From an uncultured Flavobacteriaceae bacterium (GTDB lineage: Bacteria > Bacteroidota > Bacteroidia > AKYH767-A > OLB10): DNA of 64,000 nt. Location: NCBI GenBank assembly GCA_964432885.1, contig CAYSPG010000012.1:25220-89219 (forward strand), written 5' to 3'. This document shows, one piece after another, positions 20,938-63,094 of the stretch (positions within the stretch are counted from its first letter, which is position 1; each line of letters opens with the position of its first letter). The position numbers and the translations under genes are program-made. Below the pieces are notes generated by a model. The model saw only the letters and a program-made list of their open reading frames with translations, was not told where the DNA came from and did not search any database.

Positions 20938-21141
20938 AGTTTCCTGACCGTAAGTCTTTATCCTTATACGTAAGCTGATTAATAAGTTACGTGCAAAACA
21001 AACAAAAATTGTGGTTGTTAAATATCTCTGACAAAGATATTGGAATAAATATTTAATATCAAACAAAATAAAATTCAATATTACAAGTTATATACACTGT
21101 TATTTGCACTAAAAACTAAATTTGACCTTTTATTTTTAATC

Positions 21142-24987: not shown

Positions 24988-25089
24988 CAACCTTTTTTTA
25001 TTTATATCGTTATATTTGTCGGCTCTTATTCCGCATTAACAATAAAAAGAACCAACTTACGTTTTAGCACTTTCTAAACTTACATTTTA

Positions 25090-26310
25090 ATGAAAAATAA
25101 AATTTCAAAAGCAATTGTTTTTTCGCTTGCGTTAATCATTGCTGTTTCGCCTAAGGCATTTTCGCAGCAAAGCACGGATAAAAGCAACTTGCTTGGCCAG
25201 ATAAATACAATTACTACGGCTGTTCCATTTTTAATGATTTCGCCTGACGCACGTGCCGGTGGCATGGGCGATGCAGGAGTTGCTTCATCTGCCGATGCTA
25301 ACAGCATTCATTGGAATCCATCAAAACTTGCTTTTGTTGACAAAAGTTTTGGTGTAGGAATATCTTACACCCCCTGGCTCAGAAAATTAGTTCCTGATAT
25401 TAATCTTGCTTATGTAGGCGGATATTATAAATTAAAAGGAGGTCAGCAAACACTTGGCGCTTCGTTGCGTTATTTTTCATTGGGTAATATTCAGTTTACC
25501 AATGAATCGGGCGATAACATTGGCGAGTACAACCCAAACGAATATTCATTTGATGTTGCCTATGCGCGTAAGTTGGGCGAAGATTTTGCGGGTGGTATTG
25601 CTCTGCGATACATCCACTCAAACCTAACTGGTGGAATTGGTGTTGGCGGCAACACAACCAAGGCAGGCAACTCAGTGGCTGCCGATATTTCAGTTATGTA
25701 TAAAAAAGAAATTGAACTTGGTGGCAAAGATGCCGACTTTGGTTTAGGCTTAGCAATTACAAACATTGGTTCTAAAATTACTTACTCTGAATCGGGTACC
25801 AAAGATTTTATCCCAATTAATTTACGACTTGGTCCATCGTTAAAAATTAAACTTAACGACTATAACGAACTTACTATTATAGCCGACATCAACAAACTTC
25901 TTGTACCTACTCCTCCTTATTATTCTGATTCGATTGAAGATGGTGAACAATTAATATTAGCCGGAAAAGATCCGGATGTGGGTGTAGCACAAGGAATATT
26001 TCAATCGTTTGGCGATGCACCGGGTGGTGGTAAAGAAGAGTTGCGCGAAATAAATTATTGTGGTGGATTGGAATATTGGTACGACAAACAATTTGCTTTT
26101 CGTGCCGGTTATTTTTACGAACACAAAACAAAAGGGAACCGTAAGTATTTTACACTGGGCATAGGCGCACGTTTTAATGTATTTGGATTAGATGTTGCAT
26201 ACCTTATCCCTACAGAACAGCGCAACCCGTTAGAAAATACTTTGCGCATTTCATTGTCCTTTAACTTCGACTCGCTTAAAGGCGGTGGAGACAGCAACAA
26301 CGATGAATAA
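25090..26310 (+). CDS. porV: T9SS outer-membrane shuttle/porin PorV (LptO)
   Basis: 406 aa; signal peptide; conserved N-terminus TAVPFLMISPDARAGGMGDAGVA; FadL-like beta-barrel. Confidence 0.85.
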   Translation: MKNKISKAIVFSLALIIAVSPKAFSQQSTDKSNLLGQINTITTAVPFLMISPDARAGGMGDAGVASSADANSIHWNPSKLAFVDKSFGVGISYTPWLRKLVPDINLAYVGGYYKLKGGQQTLGASLRYFSLGNIQFTNESGDNIGEYNPNEYSFDVAYARKLGEDFAGGIALRYIHSNLTGGIGVGGNTTKAGNSVAADISVMYKKEIELGGKDADFGLGLAITNIGSKITYSESGTKDFIPINLRLGPSLKIKLNDYNELTIIADINKLLVPTPPYYSDSIEDGEQLILAGKDPDVGVAQGIFQSFGDAPGGGKEELREINYCGGLEYWYDKQFAFRAGYFYEHKTKGNRKYFTLGIGARFNVFGLDVAYLIPTEQRNPLENTLRISLSFNFDSLKGGGDSNNDE

Positions 26311-37698: not shown

Positions 37699-40449
37699 TT
37701 ATCTGACTTCTAACTTTAGTTTCTCATTTGATGAGGCACTGCTAAGCGACACTATGTAAACACCTTTTGATAAGGCATGAATATTAATTTCGTGTTGGTT
37801 GGCTCCGCGTTTTGAAATTCCACCTTCGGCAATTACTTGTTTCCCTAATATATCAAACACTTTAATCGAATAGGATTCATCGCTATCGGTATTAAACATT
37901 AATGCAACTTTTTCTTTTGCCGGATTTGGATACAAAATTGTTTTAACATGTTCGTCCTCTGCAATCTCATTGTTTCCGTTACGGCATGGCATAACCACAG
38001 CCAGAACACTTGAACCGCTACTGCCACAGGCATTGCTACCAGAACATGTAACATTTCCATTTTGCGCTCCCATATTAACTGTTATTGAAGTAGTACCCTG
38101 ACCTGATACAATAGACGAGCCTGAAGGAACTATCCAGTTATCAATGGTACCGGCAACAGGATTAGCCGGAATAGTAAACACAACACCCGCCTGATTTTTG
38201 CAAAACGAAGATGGGTTAGCAGTAATAGCTCCTGGTGTTTGAGGAAATCCTTTTAACGGTATGCAACGAGGAGCACTGGTGCGACAATAATTTACACCCG
38301 ATACACACAAGTTTGAATTACCGGGATTACCAAAAGAAATATCAACTGTATTGGTTCCTGCACCGGCACCAATGGTTGCGTTGGGAGGAAGTGTCCAGGA
38401 ATAACTAGTTGCACTGTTTGACGTGCCTGCTGCATAAGTAAGAGTGGTATTGCATGCACTATAAATTTGACCTGTAAGTGTAGTCGGAATGCCAGGCATA
38501 TCAATAGATGTTGCAAAAATTTTATTAGTAGATGTATAACAATGGGTTGATGCATTCACCAGAATATTTCCTCCATTATAGGTAGGACCAAAATCAATCA
38601 CTACTGAATTTGTTCCCTGCCCACTTGCAATAGTTGCTCCGGCAGGCGGTGTCCAGTTATATGTACTTGCACCGGCTACATTTTGTGTTGCATAGGTTAT
38701 GTTTGGCAGGTTATTACAAACCTTTGCAGGTCCCGTTACTATGGCTGGTGTCGAAACTGAATAGCGAGTCCAAACATGGCTTGAGTCATCACTAGTTCCA
38801 CATTCGTTAAGTGCGCGAACGTTTATGTAATATCCTGTATTGTTCATTGAGCTAAAGTCCACAAGCACAACCTCACTGCCTTGTCCGCTGGCAATTGATA
38901 CTCCATCACTACCAAACCAGTCGTAACCAAATGCATCAGGCTGTAATGGAATACTGTACTGGACTCCCGTTGTTCCGGGACAGGTTACCTGCGAACCACC
39001 TGTTATTGCACCCGGAGTTACAGGCTTGTATTTAATGGTAAGAGGTGCCACAGAAGAAACTTTATTAGGATTGCAAGAGTTTGTAACTTTTACATCATAA
39101 TTTCCTGCATAAGAAATATCTGCTTGATTAATGGTAAGTGTATTTGTGGTTGCTCCCGAAACATTAGGTCCATCAACCAAATTAACACCGTTTAATCTCC
39201 ATTGGTAATTTAAATTTAATCCTATTGCAGAAACGGTAAACATTGCAGATGTACTATCACATACTTCAGTAGCAGTTGGCTGCACCGGAATGTCAATTAC
39301 TTTGGTTAACTGCAAACAGCGAGGCAGGCCTGTGCCACAAGCATTGGTAGATGTTACACACACACGTCCTGTATTATAATTTTGAAGAAAGTTAATATCT
39401 ACCTGTGGTGTATTTTGACCTGCAATAATTGATGCTGGCGCAAGTGTTGTCCAATTGTATCCGGTAACACCCGGTAATACCGGAACTGAATATTGTGCCA
39501 CGCCATTGCAAAGTCCAGCAGCAATGCCTGTAATGGAAGCTGGCGCATTAGGAGCCGAGCGAATCTGCAAAACTTTTTCTTTGCTAACTCCACATCCGTT
39601 GTTTGCTTTAACGCCAACATTACCTACTGTAAAGCCGGCAGGCATGGTTATAGTTACCGTATTGGTTCCCTGCCCGGTAATAGTAGCTCCGATAGGTGCC
39701 GACCATGTATAAGATGTTACGTTAGCTACCTGCTGTACACTAAACACTCCGCTTTGTCCGGCACAAACTGTAGTCGGACCTGAAATAGTTCCAGGTGTAA
39801 GTGGTTTATCAACATAAATGGTTGCGAGCTGGCTCGGACTGGTTCCGCATCCGTTTGATACATTTACACTCAACGTTCCATTGTTTACAAATCCAGCGTT
39901 AAATTGAACCGTAATTTGATTGGTACCCTGCCCGCTTAAAATGCTTGCGCCTGTTGGAACAGACCATGTAAAAATTCGTTGAGCAATATTAGTTACACTA
40001 TATGTATTGGTGGTTCCGGGACAGGCAAAAAAGTTTCCGCTTATACTTGAGGCACCACCAGGCACACCGGCCGAAGTAATGGTTTTGGTTAGCGGCCCGG
40101 TTGTAAAACAGGCATTGCTGGCATAAACGCTTATATTTCCTGGTGGCACAAAGAAAGGGCCGAAATTAACCGTAACTGTTGTTGAAGATGAAGTATATGG
40201 ATTTTGGCCATTAATATTACATCCCGAAGGCAGATACCAAGTGTAATCGGTGGCATTAGTTACGGCAGTAACGGTATATGTGTTTGATAAACCCGGACAA
40301 CTTTGTAAAGGACCCGTAACGCCACCAATACTACCAAGTTGCGGGCATTGTGCATTAATAAAATTAACTGACAATGCAAGAGCAACAGCTAGTGAAACCC
40401 GGTCAAAAGTTGTTTTTACAAAACGCAATAATTGTACATTCTTTTTCAT
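37699..40449 (-). CDS. Large secreted protein of repeated PKD/Ig-like modules with a T9SS type A C-terminal sorting domain
   Basis: 916 aa; signal peptide; about 8 repeats containing P.GA.I.SGQGTN.V; C-terminus ILYPNPAKEKV...GVYIVSL matches the Por_Secre_tail. Confidence 0.8.
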   Translation of the reverse strand: MKKNVQLLRFVKTTFDRVSLAVALALSVNFINAQCPQLGSIGGVTGPLQSCPGLSNTYTVTAVTNATDYTWYLPSGCNINGQNPYTSSSTTVTVNFGPFFVPPGNISVYASNACFTTGPLTKTITSAGVPGGASSISGNFFACPGTTNTYSVTNIAQRIFTWSVPTGASILSGQGTNQITVQFNAGFVNNGTLSVNVSNGCGTSPSQLATIYVDKPLTPGTISGPTTVCAGQSGVFSVQQVANVTSYTWSAPIGATITGQGTNTVTITMPAGFTVGNVGVKANNGCGVSKEKVLQIRSAPNAPASITGIAAGLCNGVAQYSVPVLPGVTGYNWTTLAPASIIAGQNTPQVDINFLQNYNTGRVCVTSTNACGTGLPRCLQLTKVIDIPVQPTATEVCDSTSAMFTVSAIGLNLNYQWRLNGVNLVDGPNVSGATTNTLTINQADISYAGNYDVKVTNSCNPNKVSSVAPLTIKYKPVTPGAITGGSQVTCPGTTGVQYSIPLQPDAFGYDWFGSDGVSIASGQGSEVVLVDFSSMNNTGYYINVRALNECGTSDDSSHVWTRYSVSTPAIVTGPAKVCNNLPNITYATQNVAGASTYNWTPPAGATIASGQGTNSVVIDFGPTYNGGNILVNASTHCYTSTNKIFATSIDMPGIPTTLTGQIYSACNTTLTYAAGTSNSATSYSWTLPPNATIGAGAGTNTVDISFGNPGNSNLCVSGVNYCRTSAPRCIPLKGFPQTPGAITANPSSFCKNQAGVVFTIPANPVAGTIDNWIVPSGSSIVSGQGTTSITVNMGAQNGNVTCSGSNACGSSGSSVLAVVMPCRNGNNEIAEDEHVKTILYPNPAKEKVALMFNTDSDESYSIKVFDILGKQVIAEGGISKRGANQHEINIHALSKGVYIVSLSSASSNEKLKLEVR

Positions 40450-50658: not shown

Positions 50659-52500
50659 TCACCTCTTAATCACCTTCTCTGTCAACACCTGCCCCGACTT
50701 ACTTCCCGTAACTTTTAAAAAATAAATTCCTGCATTAAGTTTATTCAGCGCAAACGAAAACTCGTTTTCTCCTTTTACCAAACTACCGTTATACAATTTA
50801 TGAACAAGCTGATTTTGGGCATTGTACAATTCAAAACACAAAACCTGGTTTTGAGGATTGGTAAATGCTACCGTAATATTTTCGTCAGCAGGATTTGGAA
50901 AAACATTAGCTGACTCACTTTTAGCAGGCAATATATTAATATCTGTAATTCCATTACCCGATAGTTCAGCAATCCATGTGCGTGTGGTGTGGTTGCCAAA
51001 TGAGTATGTACCGCTTACCCAAACTATACCGGGTTGATTATATTTTACCTGGCAACCGGAATAATCACCCCACCGTTCGGTACCGGATATCATACTAATG
51101 TAGGAAACTCCGCTACGTACATTTAGTATAGGCGAGTATTGAGTGTATCCATCAAACAGCACAGCTCCCATGCCCGGATTAACAGTGGCCGATGATTTTA
51201 AAAAACCAATAATGGAACTGTCGTTGGTTAGGTGGTTGCTTACCGGTGCAAGGTTGGCATAAGCTAAATCCATTGCCGTGTCGGCAAGGGTGGATGCTGT
51301 AACAGTATAAGTTGGCCCCACAGGATGAATCATCCCATGATATATTCCTACATTTCCTGTTGCTGTATCGGTAGTGTTACCCACAAATTGAATATCTAAT
51401 CCGTTGCTAAATGCGCCAAGTATGCGCGCATCGTTGGTAGCAAGTTTGTCGGTAAAAGGCTGGTCGGCATCTACCGGCATGCGGTATTGATGGTTTGATT
51501 GCAAAGCCTGCACGGCAACCACCTGGCCGGGGGCAAAGGCCGTGTCGGATACAGTAACTAAAAAAATAGTGTCGTTGCCGGTGCTAAAATTTCGGTTCGA
51601 AAGAAATGTCATGCCCGGTGAGTTTAATTGCCACCCTGCCCGCACGGGGCATAGGTTACGAAGTGGTGCTCCGTTATGTAATATGTTATTGTGCAATTGC
51701 GCATTTAGCGTGTTGCCATTGTAGCCGTCATACTTATTCATTTGCCAAATAAGGCTTTCGTTAAAACCGGTTTGCCAACTGCTGTCGTTATACAAAAGGT
51801 TTACGGTAATAAACAAATCATTTCCTGATAAAGAAAGCATTGGAAAATCTGTCCACAAACTATTGTTAAGCGGATTGCCGGGCAGCGCGTAAAAATTCCA
51901 AGCACCATTGGTAGTATCGCTTTGAGAAAAACCAATAATTACATTGCTGGTTGAATCGGTAAATCCATTAAGGCAAACAAAAACAAAACGATTGCTAACG
52001 TGGTCGTAAATTATTTTAGGATCAAATTCCTCCTGCTGCAAACCAAGTACCGATGTGATGGTGTGCAGATTGTAAGTACCAAAAATTTGATTGGTGATAA
52101 TGTTTTTTGTCCAAATGGTGGTGTTGGTTACCGAGCACACACGGTCGTTATTCCCAATGGCCATGTCATTATCATTTGGCACGTAGCCATTAAAAGCATT
52201 GCCAATAAAATTGCGAAGCATTGCAGGAGGATTAATTACATTTAACTTTCGCTCGTCATAAGCTGCGTATTTTTTTGGATAACGATTAGCAATTTCTTTT
52301 TTCGCTTTTTCTTTTTCAATATCATCAGCACCATGGTCGGGTTTTGGCAGATGGCGGTTTTTTACCTGCGGGTTAAAATCGTTTTGTTCATCGCTAAGCA
52401 CAAGCGTTGCTTTTTTGTGTATCACAAATTTTTGTGATGATTGGCAAAATGCCTGTGAAATACACAAGCAAATAATTAGCGGAAGCGAAATGTGTTTCAT
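50659..52500 (-). CDS. Hypothetical secreted protein with a T9SS type A C-terminal sorting domain
   Basis: Signal peptide MKHISLPLIICLCISQAFCQ; C-terminus NVFPNPADENITV...GIYFLKV matches the Por_Secre_tail. Confidence 0.75.
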   Translation of the reverse strand: MKHISLPLIICLCISQAFCQSSQKFVIHKKATLVLSDEQNDFNPQVKNRHLPKPDHGADDIEKEKAKKEIANRYPKKYAAYDERKLNVINPPAMLRNFIGNAFNGYVPNDNDMAIGNNDRVCSVTNTTIWTKNIITNQIFGTYNLHTITSVLGLQQEEFDPKIIYDHVSNRFVFVCLNGFTDSTSNVIIGFSQSDTTNGAWNFYALPGNPLNNSLWTDFPMLSLSGNDLFITVNLLYNDSSWQTGFNESLIWQMNKYDGYNGNTLNAQLHNNILHNGAPLRNLCPVRAGWQLNSPGMTFLSNRNFSTGNDTIFLVTVSDTAFAPGQVVAVQALQSNHQYRMPVDADQPFTDKLATNDARILGAFSNGLDIQFVGNTTDTATGNVGIYHGMIHPVGPTYTVTASTLADTAMDLAYANLAPVSNHLTNDSSIIGFLKSSATVNPGMGAVLFDGYTQYSPILNVRSGVSYISMISGTERWGDYSGCQVKYNQPGIVWVSGTYSFGNHTTRTWIAELSGNGITDINILPAKSESANVFPNPADENITVAFTNPQNQVLCFELYNAQNQLVHKLYNGSLVKGENEFSFALNKLNAGIYFLKVTGSKSGQVLTEKVIKR

Positions 52501-52543
52501 ACAAATGCAGTTTAGTGGTTAGAGTAATTATTAACTAAAAAAG

Positions 52544-52935
52544 TGGAGCCGGTGGGAGTTGAACCCACGTCCAGACACGGAATCAATGTGCTTTCTTCAT
52601 GCTTAGCATTTGCTTAATTGTAGGGATAATGTGTGGCGAAATGCTTACCGTCATTATCCTTAGCTCTTTTATCTTATTGCTGTGGCAGAGCAACACAGCA
52701 ACCAGCCTGTATTTTCGATGCCTCTGAACTTACCTCTACAAGCGTAAGGTAAGAGAGACAGCTTGTTCGGGTACTATCGTACCGGAATTAAGCTAACCCA
52801 CATAGTGGATTAGGCAGCAAGCGCGTAGTCGTTTTCGCCATTTAGACGAGTGAGAATCGGGATTAACGGGTGGTATTCACAGCACCCGGCATGCTTACAC
52901 ACCTATTGCACATGCTGTCGATTCCTTTCGGCCCC
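52544..52935 (-). ncRNA. ssrA: tmRNA (SsrA), encoding tag peptide GENDYALAA
   Basis: 5' end GGGGCCGAAAGGAATCGACAGCA; 3' tRNA-like end GGACGTGGGTTCAACTCCCACCGGCTCCA (T-arm plus acceptor); internal tag ORF GGC GAA AAC GAC TAC GCG CTT GCT GCC TAA on the minus strand at 52810-52839. Confidence 0.85.
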
Positions 52936-53127: not shown

Positions 53128-53173
53128 CGTTTCAAACAACAAACCTTAACCTTTGTTATTTAATGGTTTGAAA
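53128..53173 (+). promoter_or_regulatory. Nested stem-loop in the leader of the KAS III-like gene
   Basis: GTTTCAAAC-AACAAA-ccttaacc-TTTGTT-atttaatg-GTTTGAAAC; contains CAAAC at a 7-nt spacing. Confidence 0.4.
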
Positions 53174-53197
53174 CAAAAATTGTGAGTTAATATTTTA

Positions 53198-54340
53198 ATG
53201 AGTCAGGAAGTTTACATAACCAAAGCGGCCAAATTTTTACCCAATAAACCCATTGCCAATGATGAAATGGAATTGTTTTTGGGGCTGATAAATGGCAAAC
53301 CATCAAAATCAAGGGGAATAGTATTGCGGAACAATGGTATTAAGTGCCGCTATTATGCCATGGATAAAAATGGCAATGCAACGCATACCAACTCTCAAAT
53401 GGCTGCACTTGCAGTAAAGCAACTTTTTAATAATAACGCAAAAGAAATCAGTTCAATAGATTTATTATCCTGCGGCACTTCTTCTCCCGACCAGTTAATG
53501 CCATCACATGGTGTAATGGTGCATGGCTGGTTGCCCGAAACAAATGAAATTGAAGTAGTATCTCCAAGTGGAAATTGCTGCTCGGGTATGCATGCGTTAA
53601 AGTATGCATGGATGAGTGTAAAACTTGGTCAGGCAAAAAATGCTGTAGTAACAGGGTCGGAACGTTTATCGCGCATAATGCGTGCCGATAGTTTTGAAGA
53701 AGAGGCATCAAAACTGTCGTTGCTTGATGAAAACCCATACATATCATTTGATAAAGAATTTTTGCGCTGGATGCTTAGCGATGGCGCAGCAGCAGTTAAA
53801 CTAAACAATGCCAAAAGCGAAAGTGGTACAAGTTTGCGCATTGACGCTATCGAAGGCTTTTCGTTTGCTCATAAAACCGAACCTTGTATGTATCAGGCAA
53901 GTGATAAAGTAAATGGTGAGCTAAAAGGATATTCGGACTTTTCGCAAAAAGAGATTATGTCAAAATCGGTTTTCAGCATTAAGCAGGATGTAAAACTACT
54001 AAGCGAAAACATTGTAACTCTTGGAATACCTGCACTTAAAAAAGTGCTTGAAAACAACCATGTTAAACCAACAGAGATTGATTACTTTATTCCTCACCTG
54101 TCAAGCGAATTTTTTAGAAATAAAATTGCCGAACAGATGGAAGCTGCAAACATTATGATACCCAAAGAAAAATGGTTTACCAACTTATCTGAGATAGGCA
54201 ATGTAGGCTCAGCATCGGTGTATATGATGCTTGAAGAATTATTAAACACCGGCAACTTAAAAACCGGTGAAAAAATATTTCTTCTTGTTCCAGAAAGTGC
54301 ACGGTTTAGTTATGTTTTTGCACTACTTACGGTTGCGTAA
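53198..54340 (+). CDS. FabH-like beta-ketoacyl-ACP synthase III family enzyme (DarB-like condensing enzyme)
   Basis: 380 aa; thiolase fold with Cys (GNCCSGMHAL), His (IPHLSSEF) and Asn (IGNVGSASV) catalytic positions; longer than a canonical FabH. Confidence 0.75.
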   Translation: MSQEVYITKAAKFLPNKPIANDEMELFLGLINGKPSKSRGIVLRNNGIKCRYYAMDKNGNATHTNSQMAALAVKQLFNNNAKEISSIDLLSCGTSSPDQLMPSHGVMVHGWLPETNEIEVVSPSGNCCSGMHALKYAWMSVKLGQAKNAVVTGSERLSRIMRADSFEEEASKLSLLDENPYISFDKEFLRWMLSDGAAAVKLNNAKSESGTSLRIDAIEGFSFAHKTEPCMYQASDKVNGELKGYSDFSQKEIMSKSVFSIKQDVKLLSENIVTLGIPALKKVLENNHVKPTEIDYFIPHLSSEFFRNKIAEQMEAANIMIPKEKWFTNLSEIGNVGSASVYMMLEELLNTGNLKTGEKIFLLVPESARFSYVFALLTVA

Positions 54341-54365
54341 GTGAATAAAATAAGCATATAGCGTT

Positions 54366-54773
54366 TTGAAAAAAAAAGATTTACCCCAGGACCCAAGTGC
54401 GCTTGACAATGTTACACGCGATGTTGTGTATGTTACCGATGATAAAGGCAATTACACTGCCGAACTTAGCCGGGGGTGGGAAGTAAAAGCCACAGCACTT
54501 ACTATTGCCTGGCAGGATATTGAACAACGGATAAAAGAAGCAAAACTAAAAGTTGACAGTGGCCAGGCCAGCCCGGTTTTATTTTTTATGGAATTAAAAC
54601 TGATGGATATACCTACACTTGCCGGTTACACAGGCCTTTGGCAATGGCAGATAAAACGACACATTAAGCCTTCGGTTTTTAAAACCCTTTCGGCAAAAAA
54701 AATTGCAAAGTATGCCGAAGTATTTGAAGTAAGCGTTGATGACTTTAAAAACTGTATCGTACATGCAGGTTAA
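54366..54773 (+). CDS. Hypothetical 135-aa protein with a possible degenerate HTH-like C-terminus
   Basis: Overlaps the next gene by 11 nt (translational coupling); the C-terminal LAGYTGLWQWQIKRHIKP...LSAKKIAKYAEVFEVSVDDF resembles an XRE-type HTH only loosely. Confidence 0.4.
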   Translation: MKKKDLPQDPSALDNVTRDVVYVTDDKGNYTAELSRGWEVKATALTIAWQDIEQRIKEAKLKVDSGQASPVLFFMELKLMDIPTLAGYTGLWQWQIKRHIKPSVFKTLSAKKIAKYAEVFEVSVDDFKNCIVHAG

Positions 54774-55776
54774 CTTTAAACATACACAAGCAGCTCATTG
54801 CGAAAATGGTGTAACAGTAAATCTTTTGCGTCATATTGGAGTGGAAAAAATTACCGAGCCACTGGCATTTGGCATTGGGTCAGGATTATTTTTTATTTAT
54901 ATACCGCTTTTAAAAGTAAACAATGGCCCTGCGTTTTCGTACCGAACCATGCCCGGTCTTATTTTTAAACGCACGTGCAATTCACTTGGCATTCCGGTAA
55001 CGCGAAAAAAATTTTCATCACCTGAAAAAGCACAGCGCGCACTTGACGAATGCCTTAGTAACAACCAGCCTGCCGGTTGCCAGGTAGGTGTTTACTTCCT
55101 CCCCTATTTTCCAAAAGAATACCGTTTTCATTTTAACGCCCATAACCTTGTTGTATTTGGCAAAGAAGGCGACAATTACCTGGTAAGCGACCCCGTAATG
55201 GAAACCACAAATGTACTTTCAGCTTATGAGTTAGAGCGTGTGCGCTTTGCCAAAGGCCCGCTTGCACCCCGAGGCCAATTGTATTATCCCCAATCGAAAA
55301 CAGAAGTAACCGATGATATGATGCGCAAAGCCATAGTGCAGGGCATTAAGAGAAATGTGCGCGATATGCTTCGCATACCAGGCCCGGTGGCCGGTGTTAG
55401 CGGCATTAGATATACGGCAAAGAAAATTAGCCGCTGGCGCGATAAACTCGGCATAAAAACTGCCGGGCTTTATCTTGCACAACTGGTTCGCATGCAAGAG
55501 GAGATTGGAACAGGCGGTGGTGGATTCAGGTTTATTTATGCTGCATTTTTACAGCAGGCACATGCGTACTTTAAAAACGATGAGTTAATTCGCATTTCTG
55601 AACAGTTTACCAAATCAGGCGACCTATGGCGCTCATCAGCAGTTCAGGCTGCCGGAATTTTTAAAGGCCGAATTACTGCTCAGTCTGACTTTGACGACAT
55701 GGCCGGTTACCTTTATAAAATAGCCGATATTGAAAAAGAAGCTTTTGTTTCGTTATCAAAAATAAAATGGAACTAA
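54763..55776 (+). CDS. BtrH_N-domain (papain-like fold) protein, candidate DarA-type partner of the KAS III enzyme
   Basis: N-terminal HTQAAHCENGVTVNLL with a conserved Cys; about 337 aa; start taken at MQVNFKH. Confidence 0.55.
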   Translation: MQVNFKHTQAAHCENGVTVNLLRHIGVEKITEPLAFGIGSGLFFIYIPLLKVNNGPAFSYRTMPGLIFKRTCNSLGIPVTRKKFSSPEKAQRALDECLSNNQPAGCQVGVYFLPYFPKEYRFHFNAHNLVVFGKEGDNYLVSDPVMETTNVLSAYELERVRFAKGPLAPRGQLYYPQSKTEVTDDMMRKAIVQGIKRNVRDMLRIPGPVAGVSGIRYTAKKISRWRDKLGIKTAGLYLAQLVRMQEEIGTGGGGFRFIYAAFLQQAHAYFKNDELIRISEQFTKSGDLWRSSAVQAAGIFKGRITAQSDFDDMAGYLYKIADIEKEAFVSLSKIKWN

Positions 55777-56517
55777 ATGGATGCCGCCATTTCTGTTTCA
55801 AGCCTTCATTTTAAGTATCCCGGGCAAAAAAAAAATTGCCTTCAAAACATCAATCTTACCATTTTAAAAGGCGAGCGGTTTGGACTATTTGGGCCTAACG
55901 GGGCAGGTAAAACCACACTGATGAGCATTATGACAGGCCTGATAAAACCTGCAACCGGTGCTGCTCATATTTTTGGTTCCAAAATTTTTGGAAGCAATTC
56001 AATAAAAAAAACATTTGGTTATGTACCTCAGGATTTCGCATTCTATCCTGAGCTAACTCCTGTTGAAAATTTGCAGTTTTTTGGTGCCTGGGCCGGCTTG
56101 GATAACACAACCACTAAAAAGCGAACAGATGAATTGCTTGAGGTTTTGGGCCTTACCGATTTTAGAAACAAACAGGTAAAAACTTTTTCGGGAGGCATGA
56201 AAAGAAGAATAAATATTGCAATAAGTGCTATACATAATCCCCAAATTTTATTTCTTGACGAGCCTACTGTTGGTGTGGATGTTCAAACACGTGCAGCAAT
56301 AATTGATTATTTAAAACAGCTAAATGCCTGCGGAACTACTCTTGTTTACACATCACATCACTTGCAGGAAGCGCAACAACTTTGCAATCATATTGCATTA
56401 ATTGATGATGGAAAAATAATAGTTGACGGAAACCTTGAAAAAATATTGTCTGAGCATAACCAAAAACGATTGGAAGATTTGTTTTTGCAACTTACCGGAC
56501 ATGCTTACCGCGATTAA
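55777..56517 (+). CDS. ABC transporter ATP-binding protein (ABC-2 type exporter)
   Basis: Walker A GPNGAGKTT, signature FSGGMKRRINIA, Walker B LFLDEPTVGVD. Confidence 0.9.
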   Translation: MDAAISVSSLHFKYPGQKKNCLQNINLTILKGERFGLFGPNGAGKTTLMSIMTGLIKPATGAAHIFGSKIFGSNSIKKTFGYVPQDFAFYPELTPVENLQFFGAWAGLDNTTTKKRTDELLEVLGLTDFRNKQVKTFSGGMKRRINIAISAIHNPQILFLDEPTVGVDVQTRAAIIDYLKQLNACGTTLVYTSHHLQEAQQLCNHIALIDDGKIIVDGNLEKILSEHNQKRLEDLFLQLTGHAYRD

Positions 56518-56524
56518 ATAATTT

Positions 56525-57802
56525 ATGACAAAATTATTTTCAGCTTTGCTTAAAGAATTCAGGTTGCTTGTTCGCGACAGGGTTGGGCTTGCGCTTATGT
56601 TTATTATGCCGGTAATTTTGGTAATTGTTATTACCAGCGTTCAAAACAGCACGTTTGAGATGGTAAACGACAATAAGATAAAATTGCTTGTTTCCAATAA
56701 TGATTCAGGAAAAATTTCAAAACAATTTATTGGGGGCATAGCCAAACTTGGAATGTTTGAAGTAATTACAGGCAAAAGCAATAAAACTTCTGACGGCATT
56801 TCGGAGCTAATGAAAATGCATGACGCGCTTGTTGGATTGGTGCTTCCAGAAAATTTTTCAATTCAATTGCAGCAAAAAGCCAAACACAGTACTGCAAAAG
56901 CCCTCACCGAATTTGGAATGACAGGTGATACTGGCATTCCACACCCGGCAGTAATATCACCTGAACTGTATTTTCATCCGGTGCTTCAAAAATCGTACAG
57001 ATACTCTATCAATGGAGCTTTGCAAAGTGTAATGCAGGTAACCGAAAACAAACTGATGATAGAGCAATTGTACAAAACCATTAACGATAAAGAAATGCCT
57101 GATGGTTTTGAAAATGATTTGATGCAAAACAAAATTGTGTTTACCGAAAAATTTGCAACCGTAAGTGGAAACAAAACAATACCTAATGCAACACAGCATA
57201 ACATACCAGCATGGACCGTGTTTGCCATGTTTTTTATTGTAATAAGTTTGGGCGGCAATGTGGTTAAAGAAAAACTGAGTGGTAGTTTTATCAGGCTTCG
57301 CACAATGCCTACGAGTTATTTGCTCAATTTGGCTGCCAAACAAATTTTATATGTTAATGTAGTGCTGCTTCAGGTAGTGGTGATATTTGGTATTGGGGCT
57401 TTGGTATTTCCAAAATTAGGATTGCCCGTTCTTAATATACCTACCGATATTTTTTTACTGGTGCTTGTAACAATAATTTGTGGCTGGTGTGCCATAAGTT
57501 ATGCCATGTGCATTGGTGTGTTTGCTAATACACAAGAGCAGGCCAATGGATTTGGAGCCGTATCTGTTGTTTTGTTTGCTGCCATAGGCGGTGTGTTTGT
57601 GCCTGCCTTTGCCATGCCTCAATCCTTTAAAATTATCATGAACATATCTCCCCTTCACTGGTGCGTTGAATCCTATTATGATTTATTTTTAACGGGAGGC
57701 AGTTTTAAAAACATTGCTGGCAATGTTTTACCTTTGCTTGCTGCAACAGCAATTTTTCAGTTGCTTATATTTATTGGTTTAAAACGAAAGAATTTAATTT
57801 AA
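56525..57802 (+). CDS. ABC-2 family transporter permease
   Basis: 425 aa; N-terminal TM helix, large extracytoplasmic loop, C-terminal 5-TM ABC-2 domain. Confidence 0.8.
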   Translation: MTKLFSALLKEFRLLVRDRVGLALMFIMPVILVIVITSVQNSTFEMVNDNKIKLLVSNNDSGKISKQFIGGIAKLGMFEVITGKSNKTSDGISELMKMHDALVGLVLPENFSIQLQQKAKHSTAKALTEFGMTGDTGIPHPAVISPELYFHPVLQKSYRYSINGALQSVMQVTENKLMIEQLYKTINDKEMPDGFENDLMQNKIVFTEKFATVSGNKTIPNATQHNIPAWTVFAMFFIVISLGGNVVKEKLSGSFIRLRTMPTSYLLNLAAKQILYVNVVLLQVVVIFGIGALVFPKLGLPVLNIPTDIFLLVLVTIICGWCAISYAMCIGVFANTQEQANGFGAVSVVLFAAIGGVFVPAFAMPQSFKIIMNISPLHWCVESYYDLFLTGGSFKNIAGNVLPLLAATAIFQLLIFIGLKRKNLI

Positions 57803-58074
57803 TGGAAAGAGAACAACTTACGCTCGAATTAAAACAACACATTATTAAATACCTTAATCTGCTTGAAAAAACTCCTGCAGACATTGCAAACGACCAGCCC
57901 CTTTTTGGTGATGGACTTGGATTAGATTCCATTGACTCCATTGAGTTGGTTGTAATGATGGAACGCGAGTACGGTATTAAAATTAACGATCCAAAAGAAG
58001 GCCGAAAAATTTTTGTAACCATCAATACCATTGTTGATTTTATTTTGCAGCATCAAAACAAAATTACTTCGTAA
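57802..58074 (+). CDS. Acyl carrier protein
   Basis: 90 aa; phosphopantetheine attachment motif GLDSIDSIELV. Confidence 0.8.
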   Translation: MEREQLTLELKQHIIKYLNLLEKTPADIANDQPLFGDGLGLDSIDSIELVVMMEREYGIKINDPKEGRKIFVTINTIVDFILQHQNKITS

Positions 58075-58077
58075 AAA

Positions 58078-59265
58078 GTGAGCCGCATTGTAGTAACAGG
58101 ATTGGGTGTAATAAGCCCACTTGGAAACTCAGTAAGCGAAAATCACCGGGCACTTACCCAAAGCACCTGCGGCATTTCATCACTCGAGCTTTTTAAAACA
58201 AAATATGCAGCCACACTTCGCTTTGGTGAAATTAAAACCGAAAACGCTAAACTAAAAGAAGACCTTGCGGCTAATGAAGAAAGCGTAACGCGAACAAGTT
58301 TGCTTGCATTGCACGCTTTTAATCAGGCTGTTTCGTCAAGCAAACTAATGCCCTCACAGGTTTCATCACCTGATTGTGCACTTGTGGTTGCAAGTACCGT
58401 TGGCGGCATGTGTTTAACCGATGAGTTGTATAGCGACTCAAACAGCCATTCAAAAGGCTCTTCTTTTCTTTCATCATACGATTGCGCTTCTGCTGCCATG
58501 TATCTTCAGCACCGGTATCAAATCAAAGGTGTGGTTAATACCATTAACACCGCTTGTTCTTCGGGTGCCAATGCAATTATGTTTGGCGCACGCCTGATAA
58601 AAAACGGATTTGCAAAACGGGCAATTGTTGGTGGAACCGACAGCCTTGCAAAATTCACCATCAATGGTTTTAACTCCCTTAACATTCTTGCTCCACAAAA
58701 TTGCAGGCCTTTTGATAAGGAGAGAAACGGATTAAATCTGGGCGAAGGCGCGGGTTTTATAGTTCTTGAAAGAGAAGAAGATTGTGAAAACAAAAAAATA
58801 TATGCTTCGCTTACCGGCTATGCCAATACAAACGATGCATTTCACCCATCATCCATTTCAGAAAATGGCGAAGGGCCTTTTCTTGCTATGAGCAAAGCGC
58901 TTTTGCTTGCCGGCCTTGAGCCTGAAAAAATCAACTACATTAATACACATGGCACCGGCACAGAAAACAATGATGAAACAGAAAGTAAAGCGATGATTCG
59001 TATTTTTAAAATCGTTCCTCCTTTTGCTTCTTCAAAATCAAAAATAGGGCACACACTTGGTGCTGCTTCAGCTATAGAATCGGTGTTTAGCATTCTTGCG
59101 CTTTCAAATAGTGAATTGTACCCAAGTTTAAATTTTGTTAATCCTATCGAATCCACTTTGCTTTGTCCGGTTACTAACTATCAAAAAATGAACATACAAA
59201 ACGTTATGTGCAACTCGTTTGGTTTTGGTGGAAATTGCAGTTCGCTTATTTTTTCAAAAAGCTAA
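58078..59265 (+). CDS. Beta-ketoacyl-ACP synthase (FabF/FabB-like KAS I/II), GTG start
   Basis: VVTGLGVISPLGN N-terminus, active-site Cys (TACSSGANAI), His motifs (NTHGTGT, KSKIGHTLGAAS). Confidence 0.85.
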   Translation: MSRIVVTGLGVISPLGNSVSENHRALTQSTCGISSLELFKTKYAATLRFGEIKTENAKLKEDLAANEESVTRTSLLALHAFNQAVSSSKLMPSQVSSPDCALVVASTVGGMCLTDELYSDSNSHSKGSSFLSSYDCASAAMYLQHRYQIKGVVNTINTACSSGANAIMFGARLIKNGFAKRAIVGGTDSLAKFTINGFNSLNILAPQNCRPFDKERNGLNLGEGAGFIVLEREEDCENKKIYASLTGYANTNDAFHPSSISENGEGPFLAMSKALLLAGLEPEKINYINTHGTGTENNDETESKAMIRIFKIVPPFASSKSKIGHTLGAASAIESVFSILALSNSELYPSLNFVNPIESTLLCPVTNYQKMNIQNVMCNSFGFGGNCSSLIFSKS

Positions 59266-59293: not shown

Positions 59294-59572
59294 TTAATCC
59301 TCAATGCTTGCCGTAAGGCCACGCTCAATAAGTGCCTGGCACATTGGGCGCAAATATTTTACAGTTCCGTTTTTTACATCACACCTGCCTTTGTTATGTA
59401 CAATTACCGAACACTGCTCGGCTTGTTCCCGCTCATGGCTGCATATGTCAATAAGCGAATCAATAACATAATCAAAAGAGTTTACGTCATCGTTGTACAA
59501 AATCAGGTTGCTTTCTTTGGCTGCCTTTTTGTGTGAAGCAGGACTTTGAGATACAGATGGCTTGCGGCTCAT
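59294..59572 (-). CDS. clpS: ATP-dependent Clp protease adaptor ClpS
   Basis: Conserved core YKVILYNDDVNSFDYVIDSL...AEQCSVIVHNKG; start taken at MSRKPS. Confidence 0.85.
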   Translation of the reverse strand: MSRKPSVSQSPASHKKAAKESNLILYNDDVNSFDYVIDSLIDICSHEREQAEQCSVIVHNKGRCDVKNGTVKYLRPMCQALIERGLTASIED

Positions 59573-59653
59573 GTGTTTTGAATTTGATGCACAAGTATAA
59601 AAAGCATTTTTCAAATTCAAAAATACCCAACAAAATGTTTTAAACAGTAAATA

Positions 59654-62600
59654 TTAAGGTTTTAAACCGTTAGATGAACTTTTGCCCTCAAGCAAAACAT
59701 TTACCTGAGCATCGGGCTTGTTCTCAAAAATTTTAAGATTACGTCTTATACTAACCGCATATCGCTCTTTATAGTCAGATGTTTTTGCACGTTTTAATTT
59801 AGCAATTACCGCATCGTCTTCAGAAGGTTGGCTTGCTGTTTTTAACTCAGTTTCAGTTTCTGCAATTGTTGTGGGTTGGCTAATTGCAACAGGCTGTTTG
59901 GGAAGTTCCTGTGTCTTTGGCACTGAAGTAATTTTTTCTTCTACAATATTTTTAGTAAGCGTTGCAACTGAAATATTCTTTTGTTGTGACGATTTAACGA
60001 CAGTTTGTTTTGCAGGCTTGCTGTCAACCTTGGTTGATTCGATAGTTGTTGCAAGTTTTATTTCTTCAGTTGGCTTGCGCTCGGTAACTGCTGGTGCTGG
60101 TTCAACTACTCCTTTGGTAATTTCTTTTACAGTAATATTTTTTTGCTGATCGGCTTTAACTGCATTTTGCTTTACGGGTTTGCTGTTAACCTTAACTGGT
60201 TCAATGGCTGATGCAAGTTTTATTTCTTCAATAGGTTTACGTTCAACAACTGTAGATGCTGGTTCGATTACTCTCTTTGTAATTTCGTTTACAGCAATAT
60301 TTTTTTGTTGCTCAGCCTTAACCGCATTTTGTTTTGCAGGCTTGCTGTCAACCTGGATTGGCTCAATGGCTGTTGCAAGTTTCATTTCATTTAAACTCTT
60401 TGCCTCGGTTAGTCCCTTCTGTTCTGATACTTCCTTCTTTCTTTGTGCTTCAACATAACCACTAAACTCTGCTTCTTTTAATTCGTTAGATTGTGGTTCC
60501 ATTTTTTTTGTTTCTGGTGTGGTTTCAGCAGTCGCTTCACTTATGTTGTTTGTAATTTGTTTTACTGAAATATTTTTTTGCTGATCGGCTTTAACTGCAG
60601 TTTGTTTTACAGCCTTGCTTTCAACTTTTGTAGGCTCAATGGTTGTTGCAAATTTTATTTCTTCAACTGGTTTGCGTTCTTCTGCAACGGGCACAGTTGG
60701 TTTTGCAACTTCGGCAACTGGCTCAACCACACCTTTTGTAATTTCTTTTACAGTAATATTTTTTTGTTGATCAGCTTTAACTGCAGTTTGTTTTACAGCC
60801 TTGCTTTCAACTTTTGTAGGCTCAATGGTTGTTGCAAATTTTATTTCTTCAACTGGTTTGCGTTCTTCTGCAACGGGCACAGTTGGTTTTGCAACTTCGG
60901 CAACTGGCTCAACCACACCTTTTGTAATTTCTTTTACAGTAATATTTTTTTGTTGATCAGCTTTAACTGCAGTTTGTTTTACAGCCTTGCTTTCAACTTT
61001 TGTAGGCTCAATGGTTGTTGCAAATTTTATTTCTTCAACTGGTTTGTGTTCTTCTGCAACGGGCTCAGTTGGTTTTGCAACTTCGGCAACAGGTTCAACC
61101 ACACCTTTGGTAATTTCTTTTGCAACTGGCGTTTCAGCAATTTTATTTTCGTCACCCTTTGTTTGACTAGTTTTTTCAACTTTTGATTTTTCAGGTTTAG
61201 CAATGTTGGTTTTGCTTTGCTCTTTTTGCAAATCTTCAAAATTCAATTCGTCCAAACTAAACGATTGGGCAAGTTGCTGATTTTGTTTAGTAATCGAATC
61301 CTGCTTTTGCTTTAAAGCAATCTCATCCTTTTTATCCTTCTGGTTAAGTTTATCTTTAGCAATTTGTTCCATTTCAGCATCCTGCTTTGGTTTTAGCTGC
61401 TGCGCGTATTTTGTGCGCTCTGCCTTCCAATTGCACAATTGCTTTATTTTAGTTTCAGCAACTGTGTAAGCAATTACCGGAGTTAACTTAATACCCATAT
61501 CCTCAACATATCCTGCTCTTTTAATTTCGGCTTGCTTTTGTTCAACAGGTTTTTGTTCAGCAGGGTTTTTTGTGCTTACATGAGTATTGGCTGCAATTGG
61601 TTTTGTTGCTTGTTGCAAAGATGATGGTGCAGAAGGTGAACTGTTAGATGCTGCAGTTTTATTATTGGTGGCTTGTGCTGCATTTTGTTTTGCAGCTTTT
61701 GATGCTGCCAGCATTTGTTCAATCGTTTGCGGTTGATTGCTTGGTTTATCGGGCGCATTAGGATACTTTATGTTGATAGCAACAGTTTCTTTACCCGAAT
61801 TATTTTTCGAAAGAATTACTTCCTGTTCAACTGCAGTATATCCGTCTTCTATAAAAAATTCGCCCATTAGAAATGTAAAGCCCGGCTTATCAATCTTGCA
61901 AGCGTATTTTTTTGCCTTAGGCAATTTTATTTCGTAACCACCAGTTTTTGTATCTACCTGTATTTGCGACAGCAGCTTATACGATTCGCCATCATAAAAC
62001 ATAAGTGTTGCCTGTAAATCTTCGGGACGGTATGTGTTTGAAAAATTTCCTTTGATATAAATTTTACCCTCATCCTTAGTTATCAAACTAATTTTAAATT
62101 TCTGTACTTTTCCTAAATCACAATCACGATTGCTTAAAAATTTGGCTGATTTATTTCCACTATCTGGCAAAAACAAATAATCATCATACGGGCTGTTTAC
62201 GGGCATTCCTAAGTTTTCGGGCACACCCCAGTTACTTGTTGTTTCATTCCATGTACATTTAAACACATCATAACCGCCCATGCTCTGCTCATTGTTTGCA
62301 CTAAAATAAAGTACGGTACCATTTTGAGCTGTGGTAGGATAAATTTCATCGGCAATTGTATTTACAGGCGATTGCAACCTTACAGGTTTATCATATTTTT
62401 CGGCACCTTTTTTATTTGCATAAAAAATATCGGCATGGTACGAACCATCCGTTCCTTTGCTTGAATAATAAACACGGTTTCCATTTGCTTCTAAAAATAA
62501 AAACTGTGGTTCGTTTAATTTTTTATCATAATTGGATTGAAAAGCCTCTGTTATTTTTAGCAATTTTCCATTTTCAGAAAAATAATTTCCGGCCACGTTT

Positions 62601-63094
62601 ACCAGCTCTTCATTTGCCTTTTCATTAATTGGGTATTTATCTCCAAGTTGCTTTATTCTTAATCCTGATTTGCACTGTTGGATGCGTGTGTCCACTTTCC
62701 ATTCGGTAAGCAATTCCTGCCCTGTATATTTTTTAAAAATCTGATACGACCGCATGCTTTGATCGAAATCATACGTAAGCTGATAAGCCAATCCTAAATA
62801 ATAATATACATCCTTGGGTGTGTTTGCACTCATGGAGGCTTTTTCAAGATGCTTAATGGCATCAACAACATTTACTCCTGAAAGCACGCGGCTTACACCA
62901 TACAAGTATTGATACCGAACATCGGCCGGATGATTGCTTACCAATTGTGCATACTGCCATGATGCCTGCCGATATTGTTTTGTTTTAAAATAATTATCGG
63001 CACTAATGGCAAGTTCCTTGTCCTGTGCATGCAAACATGCAATGCTCATTACAAAAAGTGCCAACAGTATATAAAATTTATTTGCTTTAGTCAT
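59654..63094 (-). CDS. Large exported protein: N-terminal TPR plus PD40/TolB-like region (as in Bacteroidota OmpA-family proteins), with the C-terminal half a Lys/Glu/Pro-rich tandem 62-aa repeat array and no recognisable OmpA domain
   Basis: Signal peptide MTKANKFYILLALFVMSIACLHAQ; TPR-like helices at residues ~30-130; WD/PD40-like region at ~200-330; repeats ITKGVVEPVAEVAKPTVPVAEERKPVEEIKFATTIEPTKVESKAVKQTAVKADQQKNITVKE x3 near-identical plus about 4 diverged copies. Confidence 0.7.
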   Translation of the reverse strand: MTKANKFYILLALFVMSIACLHAQDKELAISADNYFKTKQYRQASWQYAQLVSNHPADVRYQYLYGVSRVLSGVNVVDAIKHLEKASMSANTPKDVYYYLGLAYQLTYDFDQSMRSYQIFKKYTGQELLTEWKVDTRIQQCKSGLRIKQLGDKYPINEKANEELVNVAGNYFSENGKLLKITEAFQSNYDKKLNEPQFLFLEANGNRVYYSSKGTDGSYHADIFYANKKGAEKYDKPVRLQSPVNTIADEIYPTTAQNGTVLYFSANNEQSMGGYDVFKCTWNETTSNWGVPENLGMPVNSPYDDYLFLPDSGNKSAKFLSNRDCDLGKVQKFKISLITKDEGKIYIKGNFSNTYRPEDLQATLMFYDGESYKLLSQIQVDTKTGGYEIKLPKAKKYACKIDKPGFTFLMGEFFIEDGYTAVEQEVILSKNNSGKETVAINIKYPNAPDKPSNQPQTIEQMLAASKAAKQNAAQATNNKTAASNSSPSAPSSLQQATKPIAANTHVSTKNPAEQKPVEQKQAEIKRAGYVEDMGIKLTPVIAYTVAETKIKQLCNWKAERTKYAQQLKPKQDAEMEQIAKDKLNQKDKKDEIALKQKQDSITKQNQQLAQSFSLDELNFEDLQKEQSKTNIAKPEKSKVEKTSQTKGDENKIAETPVAKEITKGVVEPVAEVAKPTEPVAEEHKPVEEIKFATTIEPTKVESKAVKQTAVKADQQKNITVKEITKGVVEPVAEVAKPTVPVAEERKPVEEIKFATTIEPTKVESKAVKQTAVKADQQKNITVKEITKGVVEPVAEVAKPTVPVAEERKPVEEIKFATTIEPTKVESKAVKQTAVKADQQKNISVKQITNNISEATAETTPETKKMEPQSNELKEAEFSGYVEAQRKKEVSEQKGLTEAKSLNEMKLATAIEPIQVDSKPAKQNAVKAEQQKNIAVNEITKRVIEPASTVVERKPIEEIKLASAIEPVKVNSKPVKQNAVKADQQKNITVKEITKGVVEPAPAVTERKPTEEIKLATTIESTKVDSKPAKQTVVKSSQQKNISVATLTKNIVEEKITSVPKTQELPKQPVAISQPTTIAETETELKTASQPSEDDAVIAKLKRAKTSDYKERYAVSIRRNLKIFENKPDAQVNVLLEGKSSSNGLKP
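59900..61150. repeat. Intragenic tandem repeat array; 186-bp unit with 3 near-identical copies at ~60583-61140 and diverged ~160-186-bp copies at ~59900-60580
   Basis: The DNA-level identity of three consecutive 186-bp units is also visible as a three-fold repeated antisense ORF (60578..61186 in the track). Confidence 0.85.

Follow-up and report, generated by a model that had tools for sequence, protein, structure and literature searches.

In dialkylresorcinol biosynthesis, the ketosynthase DarB condenses a β-ketoacyl and an α,β-unsaturated acyl thioester to a carboxy-cyclohexanedione, and a resorcinol has been seen only where a homologue of the aromatase DarA is present, carboxy-cyclohexanediones being the substrates of DarA (PMC6836626). 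Heterologous expression of darAB yields the resorcinol of flexirubin (PMC3992019). Cyclohexanediones (CHDs) can also be isolated, and in Photorhabdus asymbiotica PauR senses them as signals (PMC4414361). Here we analyse a seven-gene cassette at positions 53198-59265 of a 64,000-nucleotide (nt) stretch of contig CAYSPG010000012.1 from an uncultured Flavobacteriaceae bacterium, referred to throughout as the window. By its gene content and order, this block is the conserved core operon of the dialkylresorcinol ('dar') module of Bacteroidota, already described, which is responsible for the resorcinol half of flexirubin-type pigments. What is new is a variant of that module which lacks DarA and a chain length factor (CLF) and is maintained by selection in an uncultured Bacteroidota lineage.

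Several named systems can be set beside the cassette. In Azoarcus sp. BH72, the dar cluster (azo0283-azo0293), which provides the dialkylresorcinol part of arcuflavin, has the order darA (aromatase), darB, darD (hypothetical), darE (BtrH-like), darF (ATP-binding cassette (ABC) ATPase), darI (permease), darC (acyl carrier protein, ACP), darJ (β-ketoacyl synthase, KS) and darK (Schoener et al. 2014, PMC3949708). The window has the identical seven-gene order from darB to darJ, and the Azoarcus cluster, too, lies apart from the polyene (arc) genes. However, Azoarcus is a betaproteobacterium, and its cluster has darA upstream, darK downstream and an inserted Phd/PIN toxin–antitoxin pair, whereas the window has neither darA nor an equivalent of darK/CLF. 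Chitinophaga pinensis and Flavobacterium johnsoniae share a flexirubin-type DarB with the window, whose proteins pass the NCBIfam DarB and flexirubin DarG models; in both of these species darA lies beside darB (PMC3992019), in contrast to the window. The C. pinensis dar genes Cpin_6850/6851 are far from the flx polyene cluster Cpin_1853-1877 (PMC3992019), an arrangement that could equally apply to the window organism. Thus, a dar cluster outside a flexirubin cluster is not new; one without DarA is.

The Pseudomonas aurantiaca darABC and Photorhabdus StlC/StlD/StlE systems have a homologous ring-forming ketosynthase, and the window likewise has a dedicated ACP. They are, however, three-gene units with an aromatase (DarA/StlC) and without DarG, DarH, an ABC-2 exporter or an extra KS. 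DarB homologues without DarA do exist in cyanobacteria, their product being unknown (PMC6836626). These resemble the window in having a DarB-type enzyme with no adjacent aromatase, but they form distant clades with suspected different chemistry, whereas the window DarB lies, on a branch of ordinary length, among flexirubin-type DarBs from DarA-linked loci.

The preliminary description of this locus, made from the sequence alone, had proposed that the 380-amino-acid (aa) β-ketoacyl-ACP synthase III (KAS III) protein is a condensing ketosynthase of the DarB/StlD type and not an ordinary FabH, and this holds. The protein scored 594.4 bits against the NCBIfam DarB model NF053539 (cut-off 550) and 551.6 bits against NF005293 (cut-off 450), whereas FabH models gave only 64-97 bits against cut-offs of 249-437. 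Residues 1-379, in effect the full length, matched the sequence of the StlD crystal structure 5gk0 with E=4.9e-106, compared with E=1.1e-16 for the best FabH structure. The catalytic triad Cys127, His300 and Asn335, conserved in at least 93% of 32 sequences, aligns to the StlD positions and is intact in the window. By these matches, the product of 53198-54340 is DarB, a head-to-head condensing ketosynthase of the StlD family, and would form the cyclohexanedione ring; the chemistry is knowledge about the family, whilst the membership is what was found here. The cassette likewise has the dedicated ACP, the KS and the ABC-2 exporter that had been described. The ACP retains its phosphopantetheine site, Asp42-Ser43, and falls just short of the PRK09184-type model (67.3 bits, cut-off 70). 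The KS retains Cys160, His291 and His325 and stays below cut-off for both PRK09185 (301 bits) and FabF (290 bits), as does the ABC ATPase for TIGR01188 (229 bits).

The roles of the 135-aa protein and of the protein with BtrH_N and DUF4872 domains had been called unresolved. This is no sign of novelty: both belong to curated NCBIfam families, and their place in the gene order is published for Azoarcus BH72. The former scored 185 bits against NF053545 (flexirubin biosynthesis protein DarG, cut-off 170) and 175.6 bits against NF053536 (cut-off 70), and the latter 469 bits against NF053550 (BtrH-related acyltransferase DarH, cut-off 300). The names invite confusion, as what NCBIfam calls DarG and DarH are darD and darE in Azoarcus, where darG and darH denote the Phd/PIN toxin–antitoxin pair. 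DarG is also the name of the antitoxin in DarTG systems. NCBIfam names are used below.

Related loci were collected from a scan of reference genomes with DarB (32 loci) and from a metagenome scan (48 loci), and tblastn maps show the seven-gene order recurring in most of these ∼80 loci, across classes of Bacteroidota and in one metagenome-assembled genome (MAG) of Neomarinimicrobiota. The best reference match of the window is only 68% identical and is itself an uncultured MAG, so the window organism has no close sequenced relative. Clustering of the open reading frames (ORFs) of the related loci gave a canonical module in the order F8, F1, DarB, DarG, DarH, ABC ATPase, ABC permease, ACP, KS and F9. 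Neither Pfam nor NCBIfam has a model for the F8 protein (∼160 aa). F1 (∼300 aa) is named 'Dialkylresorcinol condensing enzyme DarA' or 'flavodoxin family protein' by its sources when the exact sequences are looked up; F9 (∼350 aa) is named 'beta-ketoacyl synthase chain length factor', the CLF, and also matches PF13723. Amongst loci with at least 300 nt of sequence upstream of darB, darA lies directly upstream in 71/73, the two exceptions being L036, a short contig with a PIN/antitoxin insertion, and L075, where darB is 5'-truncated. F8 precedes DarA in 30/64 loci, and CLF follows the ACP–KS pair in 25/31 but is absent from the sister clade L010/L043. Uncultured Bacteroidota relatives such as L003, L035 and L087 carry the same seven genes in the same order, at 60-83% protein identity, and differ from the window in having F8-DarA upstream and, usually, CLF downstream.

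The module is not entirely rigid. The positions of the ABC ATPase and permease are retained in most related loci, and the ACP-KS-CLF part is relocated in L013, L028, L029, L032 and L085. L084 and L085/L086 have F8-DarA-DarB-DarG-DarH without the ABC genes; ACP-KS-CLF lies upstream of F8 in L085/L086 and is not found in L084 within the fetched stretch. As the arrangements vary around it, DarA-DarB-DarG-DarH is the tightly linked core. In the closest relatives, L002, L003, L035 and L038, the module lies within real flexirubin clusters, which encode the tyrosine ammonia-lyase FlxA (779 bits, cut-off 700) and the reductase FlxB (400 bits, cut-off 340), along with a halogenase, a methyltransferase resembling FlxJ and an MMPL-acyltransferase-methyltransferase fusion. 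In the L010-type sister clade the neighbours of the module, which there includes DarA, are arginase-family, radical-SAM, aroQ and obg genes.

Against this canonical layout, the claims that the cassette is self-contained and follows a DarB/DarA/DarC logic had to be given up, as F8-DarA and CLF are missing at its ends and with them the aromatase step. The BtrH_N protein is not DarA: the two are dissimilar by BLASTP (E=8.6), DarA being a separate ∼300-aa flavodoxin-like family. Searching the window by tblastn with every ORF of 32 related loci, including FlxA, FlxB, MMPL-acyltransferase, CLF, thioesterase and LpxL-like genes, turned up, besides the cassette itself, only a gene for MeaB and an unrelated ABC ATPase. 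The six-frame translation, searched with profiles (hmmsearch --max), was also negative for DarA (best E=1), CLF (best E=0.15) and F8 (all best E-values 0.15 to 1). The 262-nt darB leader holds no remnant of a DarA C-terminus, of the kind readily visible in the short stubs of L006, L045 and L070, and at the other end of the cassette the KS has no CLF partner and is followed by clpS instead. The preliminary description was right that the locus lies outside any flexirubin cluster, and this extends to the whole window, which contains no aryl-polyene or flexirubin genes: FlxA, FlxB, polyene KS and dehydratase, and LolA/MMPL export genes are all absent, and Pfam scans of the other large ORFs (four without a match) gave housekeeping and type IX secretion system (T9SS) genes only.

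One close relative, 85% identical, has the same layout. In locus L034 (CXWJ01006575.1, 6246 nt) all seven genes recur, their proteins being 78-91% identical to those of the window, and F8, darA and CLF are lacking from its cassette too. The 79 nt that precede darB there can be aligned to the non-coding leader of the window and include no DarA C-terminus, and the last ∼50 nt of the locus align to clpS, on the opposite strand, in the part that codes for the C-terminus, so both unusual junctions are common to the two loci. Between them, dN/dS is 0.016-0.11 across all seven genes, with dS above 1.2 (Table 1). DarH is the most constrained (0.016) and is 77-83% identical to DarH of DarA-bearing loci, which argues that its substrate is unchanged. 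The DarBs of the window and L034 show no rate acceleration relative to ten outgroups. In a neighbour-joining tree the two have branches of ordinary length and form the sister group of the CLF-less L010/L043 clade; in the nearest outgroup by DarH identity, L087 (83%), DarA overlaps the start of darB (F1 profile E=1e-142). The simplest history is that CLF was lost in a larger clade and that F8-DarA was then lost or relocated in the lineage of the window and L034. By these substitution rates, the remaining seven-gene operon is kept functional under strong purifying selection.

All seven ORFs, with the coordinates and domains first assigned to them, were confirmed by the ORF map and Pfam, and ARAGORN, Rfam and Pfam confirmed that the cassette sits between ssrA, the transfer-messenger RNA (tmRNA) gene, and clpS (Table 1). 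The genes are co-directional and tightly packed, with gaps of 25, -11, 0, 7, -1 and 3 nt, and they are therefore read as a single operon. The 5' end of ssrA points toward the cassette, and clpS is convergent with the KS gene, 28 nt beyond it. The darH ORF would encode 346 aa from the first TTG (54736), compared with 337 aa from the ATG chosen by the gene caller (54763).

Table 1. Features of the dar cassette and its borders (window coordinates), with dN/dS of each gene against L034
Feature	Coordinates	Strand	dN/dS	Description
ssrA (tmRNA)	52541-52935	-		ARAGORN, tag GENDYALAA; Rfam RF00023, 150 bits; boundary, outside module
Inverted repeat in darB leader	53129-53174	+		GTTTCAAAC-AACAAA ... 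TTTGTT ... GTTTGAAAC
darB	53198-54340	+	0.076	380 aa; ACP_syn_III_C/KAS III (Pfam)
darG (NCBIfam name; Azoarcus darD)	54366-54773	+		135 aa; no Pfam family
darH (NCBIfam name; Azoarcus darE)	54763-55776	+	0.016	337 aa; BtrH_N + DUF4872 (Pfam)
ABC transporter ATPase, DrrA-like subfamily	55777-56517	+	0.042	246 aa; PF00005 E=1e-33
ABC-2 type permease, partner of the ATPase	56525-57802	+	0.11	425 aa; PF12698 and PF01061
Dedicated acyl carrier protein	57802-58074	+	0.03	90 aa; PP-binding PF00550; Azoarcus darC by position
FabF-like β-ketoacyl synthase (KS)	58078-59265	+	0.10	395 aa; PF00109 + PF02801; Azoarcus darJ by position
clpS	59294-59620	-		PF02617 E=8e-16; boundary, outside module

Structure models give a view of the two accessory proteins, neither of which found a match in sequence searches against the PDB. 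The AlphaFold 2 model of DarH (mean predicted local distance difference test score (pLDDT) 84, predicted template modelling score 0.85) has a papain-like N-terminal domain and a helical C-terminal domain with a Cys/His/Asp triad; Cys13, His123/His127 and Asp143 are invariant. The comparable enzyme CtaG is a papain-like, carrier-protein-dependent ligase with the triad Cys11/His128/Asp144 and a ping-pong mechanism, and BtrH and AsbE have a CtaG-like architecture and use carrier-protein-bound donors and free acceptors (PMC12865890). Because of this fold and the conserved triad, DarH is best read, on its predicted structure, as an ACP-dependent Cys transacylase of the CtaG/BtrH type. The known members CtaG, BtrH and AsbE make amide bonds with amine acceptors, whereas the expected acceptor of DarH is a phenolic or enolic hydroxyl, with an ester as the predicted product. 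We infer that, in flexirubin producers, DarH is a natural candidate for the enzyme that attaches the polyenoyl chain to the hydroxyl of the resorcinol, a step for which the ligase-like FlxW was proposed instead in 2014 (PMC3992019).

The DarG model, built from 54 homologues (pLDDT 87), shows a β-hairpin, a long helix and a C-terminal five-helix domain, which is predicted to have the cro/C1-type (XRE-type) helix-turn-helix (HTH) fold. Two enzymes, HppE and HEPD, have HTH-like domains that match it with equally good scores, and the fold alone is therefore no proof of DNA binding. The would-be recognition helix is unusually aromatic, with conserved W92, W94 and H99. The end of darG and the beginning of darH share 11 nt, and through this overlap the two genes are translationally coupled. 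AziU3, which is amongst the top structural matches of DarH, was crystallised in complex with a second protein, AziU2. Together, the aromatic helix, the coupling and the AziU3–AziU2 complex hint that DarG may be a partner of DarH instead of a regulator.

The darB leader contains an inverted repeat which is kept in L034 (positions 8-53), with 21 identical nt and one compensatory pair, despite saturation of synonymous sites between the two loci. It is absent from the other 79 loci, and the idea that it is a general dar operator was rejected. The folding z-scores are weak (-2.1 and -0.8), and Rfam finds no riboswitch or other known RNA in the leader, only the tmRNA. Judged by its conservation, the repeat could be a candidate operator, perhaps for the HTH-fold DarG, or a hairpin in the 5' untranslated region.

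A pathway without DarA in cis requires either that DarA be encoded elsewhere or that the pathway stop at the cyclohexanedione. Our favoured reading, to which we give an even chance, is that the core dar operon has been split from F8, darA and CLF and now lies among housekeeping genes, with DarA encoded elsewhere in the genome. The KS and ACP, helped by housekeeping fatty-acid enzymes, would supply β-ketoacyl-ACP. DarB would then join β-ketoacyl and α,β-unsaturated acyl thioesters, by Michael addition and Claisen condensation, to give a carboxy-2,5-dialkylcyclohexane-1,3-dione, and DarA, acting in trans, would aromatise and decarboxylate the ring to the dialkylresorcinol, which is the weakest step of the scheme. 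DarH, to go by its CtaG/BtrH fold and triad, would load an ACP-bound acyl group onto its catalytic Cys and pass it to a ring hydroxyl; in flexirubin producers the acyl group would be the aryl-polyenoyl chain. The ABC-2 pump would take the lipid out of the inner membrane, and DarG would either regulate the operon or serve as a subunit partnering DarH.

We prefer DarA in trans because C. pinensis and Azoarcus provide documented cases of split dar and flx loci, because rearranged loci are common, and because neither DarH nor DarB shows any sign of a changed substrate. Several points weigh against it. Neither the 64-kb window nor the ∼4 kb on its right contains a gene for DarA, F8 or CLF. Three DarA matches that were spot-checked came from other samples, in canonical loci, and none from the same sequencing runs. 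The near-universal adjacency of DarA and DarB makes a relocated darA itself unusual. No polyene genes that would account for an acyl donor of DarH are known for the window organism, and the literature examined contained no experimental test, in any organism, of the roles of DarG, DarH, the KS, the ACP or the exporter.

The best-placed alternative, possible if on the unlikely side, is that the lineage of the window and L034 has lost F8-darA and CLF outright, and that the operon ends at the cyclohexanedione stage. The products would be 2,5-dialkylcyclohexane-1,3-diones, possibly acylated by DarH, which the ABC-2 pump would export as membrane lipids or signals. The sharing of both junctions, the leader without DarA and the KS followed by clpS without CLF, by two lineages with saturated synonymous sites speaks for this, as does purifying selection on all seven genes. 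The nearest outgroups (L087, L002/L003 and the CLF-less L010/L043) retain DarA, pointing to a loss that is derived and stable, and the linkage of DarA and DarB is near-universal elsewhere. There are precedents in the CHDs sensed by PauR (PMC4414361) and in the cyanobacterial DarA-less DarBs (PMC6836626). On the other hand, the cyanobacterial enzymes are phylogenetically distant, unlike the window DarB, and neither DarB nor DarH shows sequence drift relative to DarA-bearing loci. DarG still passes a flexirubin-specific equivalog model, and the observed absence of DarA covers ∼68 kb of an incomplete genome. It is doubtful that the dar module has become DarA- and CLF-independent with an exported end product that is a 2,5-dialkylcyclohexane-1,3-dione, or an ester made from it by DarH, and not a resorcinol. 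If true, Bacteroidota would have a pathway to a cyclohexanedione lipid or signal.

It is very improbable that the cassette is a decaying remnant of a flexirubin cluster, left without a product after a deletion. Three normally linked genes are indeed missing, but the seven ORFs are intact with conserved catalytic residues, the low dN/dS values hold across dS above 1.2, the layout is retained in L034 and the operon spacing is tight.

Insertion as a mobile genomic island at ssrA has a slimmer chance still. The cassette adjoins the tmRNA gene, and the L034 contig ends close to both cassette borders. Integrases, however, target the 3' end of ssrA, whereas the cassette abuts the 5' side; no integrase lies nearby, and no att-like direct repeats were found flanking it. 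The composition of the cassette is native to the host contig: its G+C content is 39.6% against 38.8% in the rest of the window, codon usage correlates with r 0.958 (control 0.961), and the tetranucleotide r of 0.974 is within the control range. The downstream edge of L034 runs into clpS, just as in the window. It had been asked whether neighbouring genomes carry the cassette at ssrA; the position is not conserved, no tmRNA being found in the 68 related loci scanned. The island was rejected on the side of insertion, the missing integrase and repeats and the native composition.

An ordinary fatty-acid locus, with a FabH-type initiator, FabF and ACP for branched-chain fatty acids, is barely conceivable, for although cassette proteins do match FabH and FabF models weakly, the curated model scores and the StlD match reject a FabH, and DarB sits inside the tree of dar-locus DarBs and is linked to DarG and DarH.

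Some further features of the related loci deserve mention. L002 (11198-13776), L004, L035, L037 and L083 (8127-10721) have a FAD-dependent halogenase-like protein (563 aa) and a DUF1702 protein between darB and darG, and the insertion suggests that this subclade of closest relatives may make halogenated resorcinol variants. The Candidatus Neomarinimicrobiota MAG (L030) has a full dar module outside Bacteroidota, with DarA, DarB, DarG, DarH, an ABC transporter, a thioesterase, a KS, an ACP, a second KS and a CLF. At positions 283-890 of L036, just upstream of darB, lie a small antitoxin-like ORF and a PIN-like ORF, the latter called from reading the sequence only; the pair recalls the toxin–antitoxin pair within the Azoarcus dar cluster. 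The DarA family itself (e.g. L003 9096-9995) has a flavodoxin-like motif at its start and a conserved hydrophobic, transmembrane-like segment and basic tail at its end, and has no Pfam or NCBIfam model despite more than 4,400 homologues.

Around the cassette, the ∼4 kb past the right end of the window encode plsY, a pseudouridine synthase, a PASTA protein, a GT2 glycosyltransferase and msrA. On the minus strand at 59654-63094 lies a gene for a 1146-aa secreted protein without a Pfam match, in which a unit of ∼162 nt (54 aa), rich in K, E, P and V, occurs in at least three tandem copies; the Logan contig of this region breaks inside the repeat protein. The T9SS set occupies 19936-26310, together with 171-4802, 32741-35401, 37699-40449 and 50659-52500. 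It includes PorP/SprF, a C25 PorU-like peptidase and PorV, and several large cargo proteins with Por_Secre_tail or CHU_C sorting domains, amongst them a 1543-aa SprB-repeat adhesin and a protein with eight PKD-like domains. The T9SS genes and a T9SS sorting domain assign the window organism to Bacteroidota.

The analysis corrects the record, in that the cassette represents the dar module, which was known before, rather than a lipid pathway of a new kind. The fold-level evidence provides testable roles for the accessory proteins DarG and DarH. The enzyme that links polyene acid and resorcinol as an ester in flexirubin has long been sought, and DarH is a good candidate for it. In the window lineage nature has provided a 'darA deletion' that selection maintains. 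Should the genome truly lack DarA, the DarB-DarG-DarH-exporter core would have a function of its own, making cyclohexanediones, and the lineage would be a convenient system for sorting out the role of each accessory gene.

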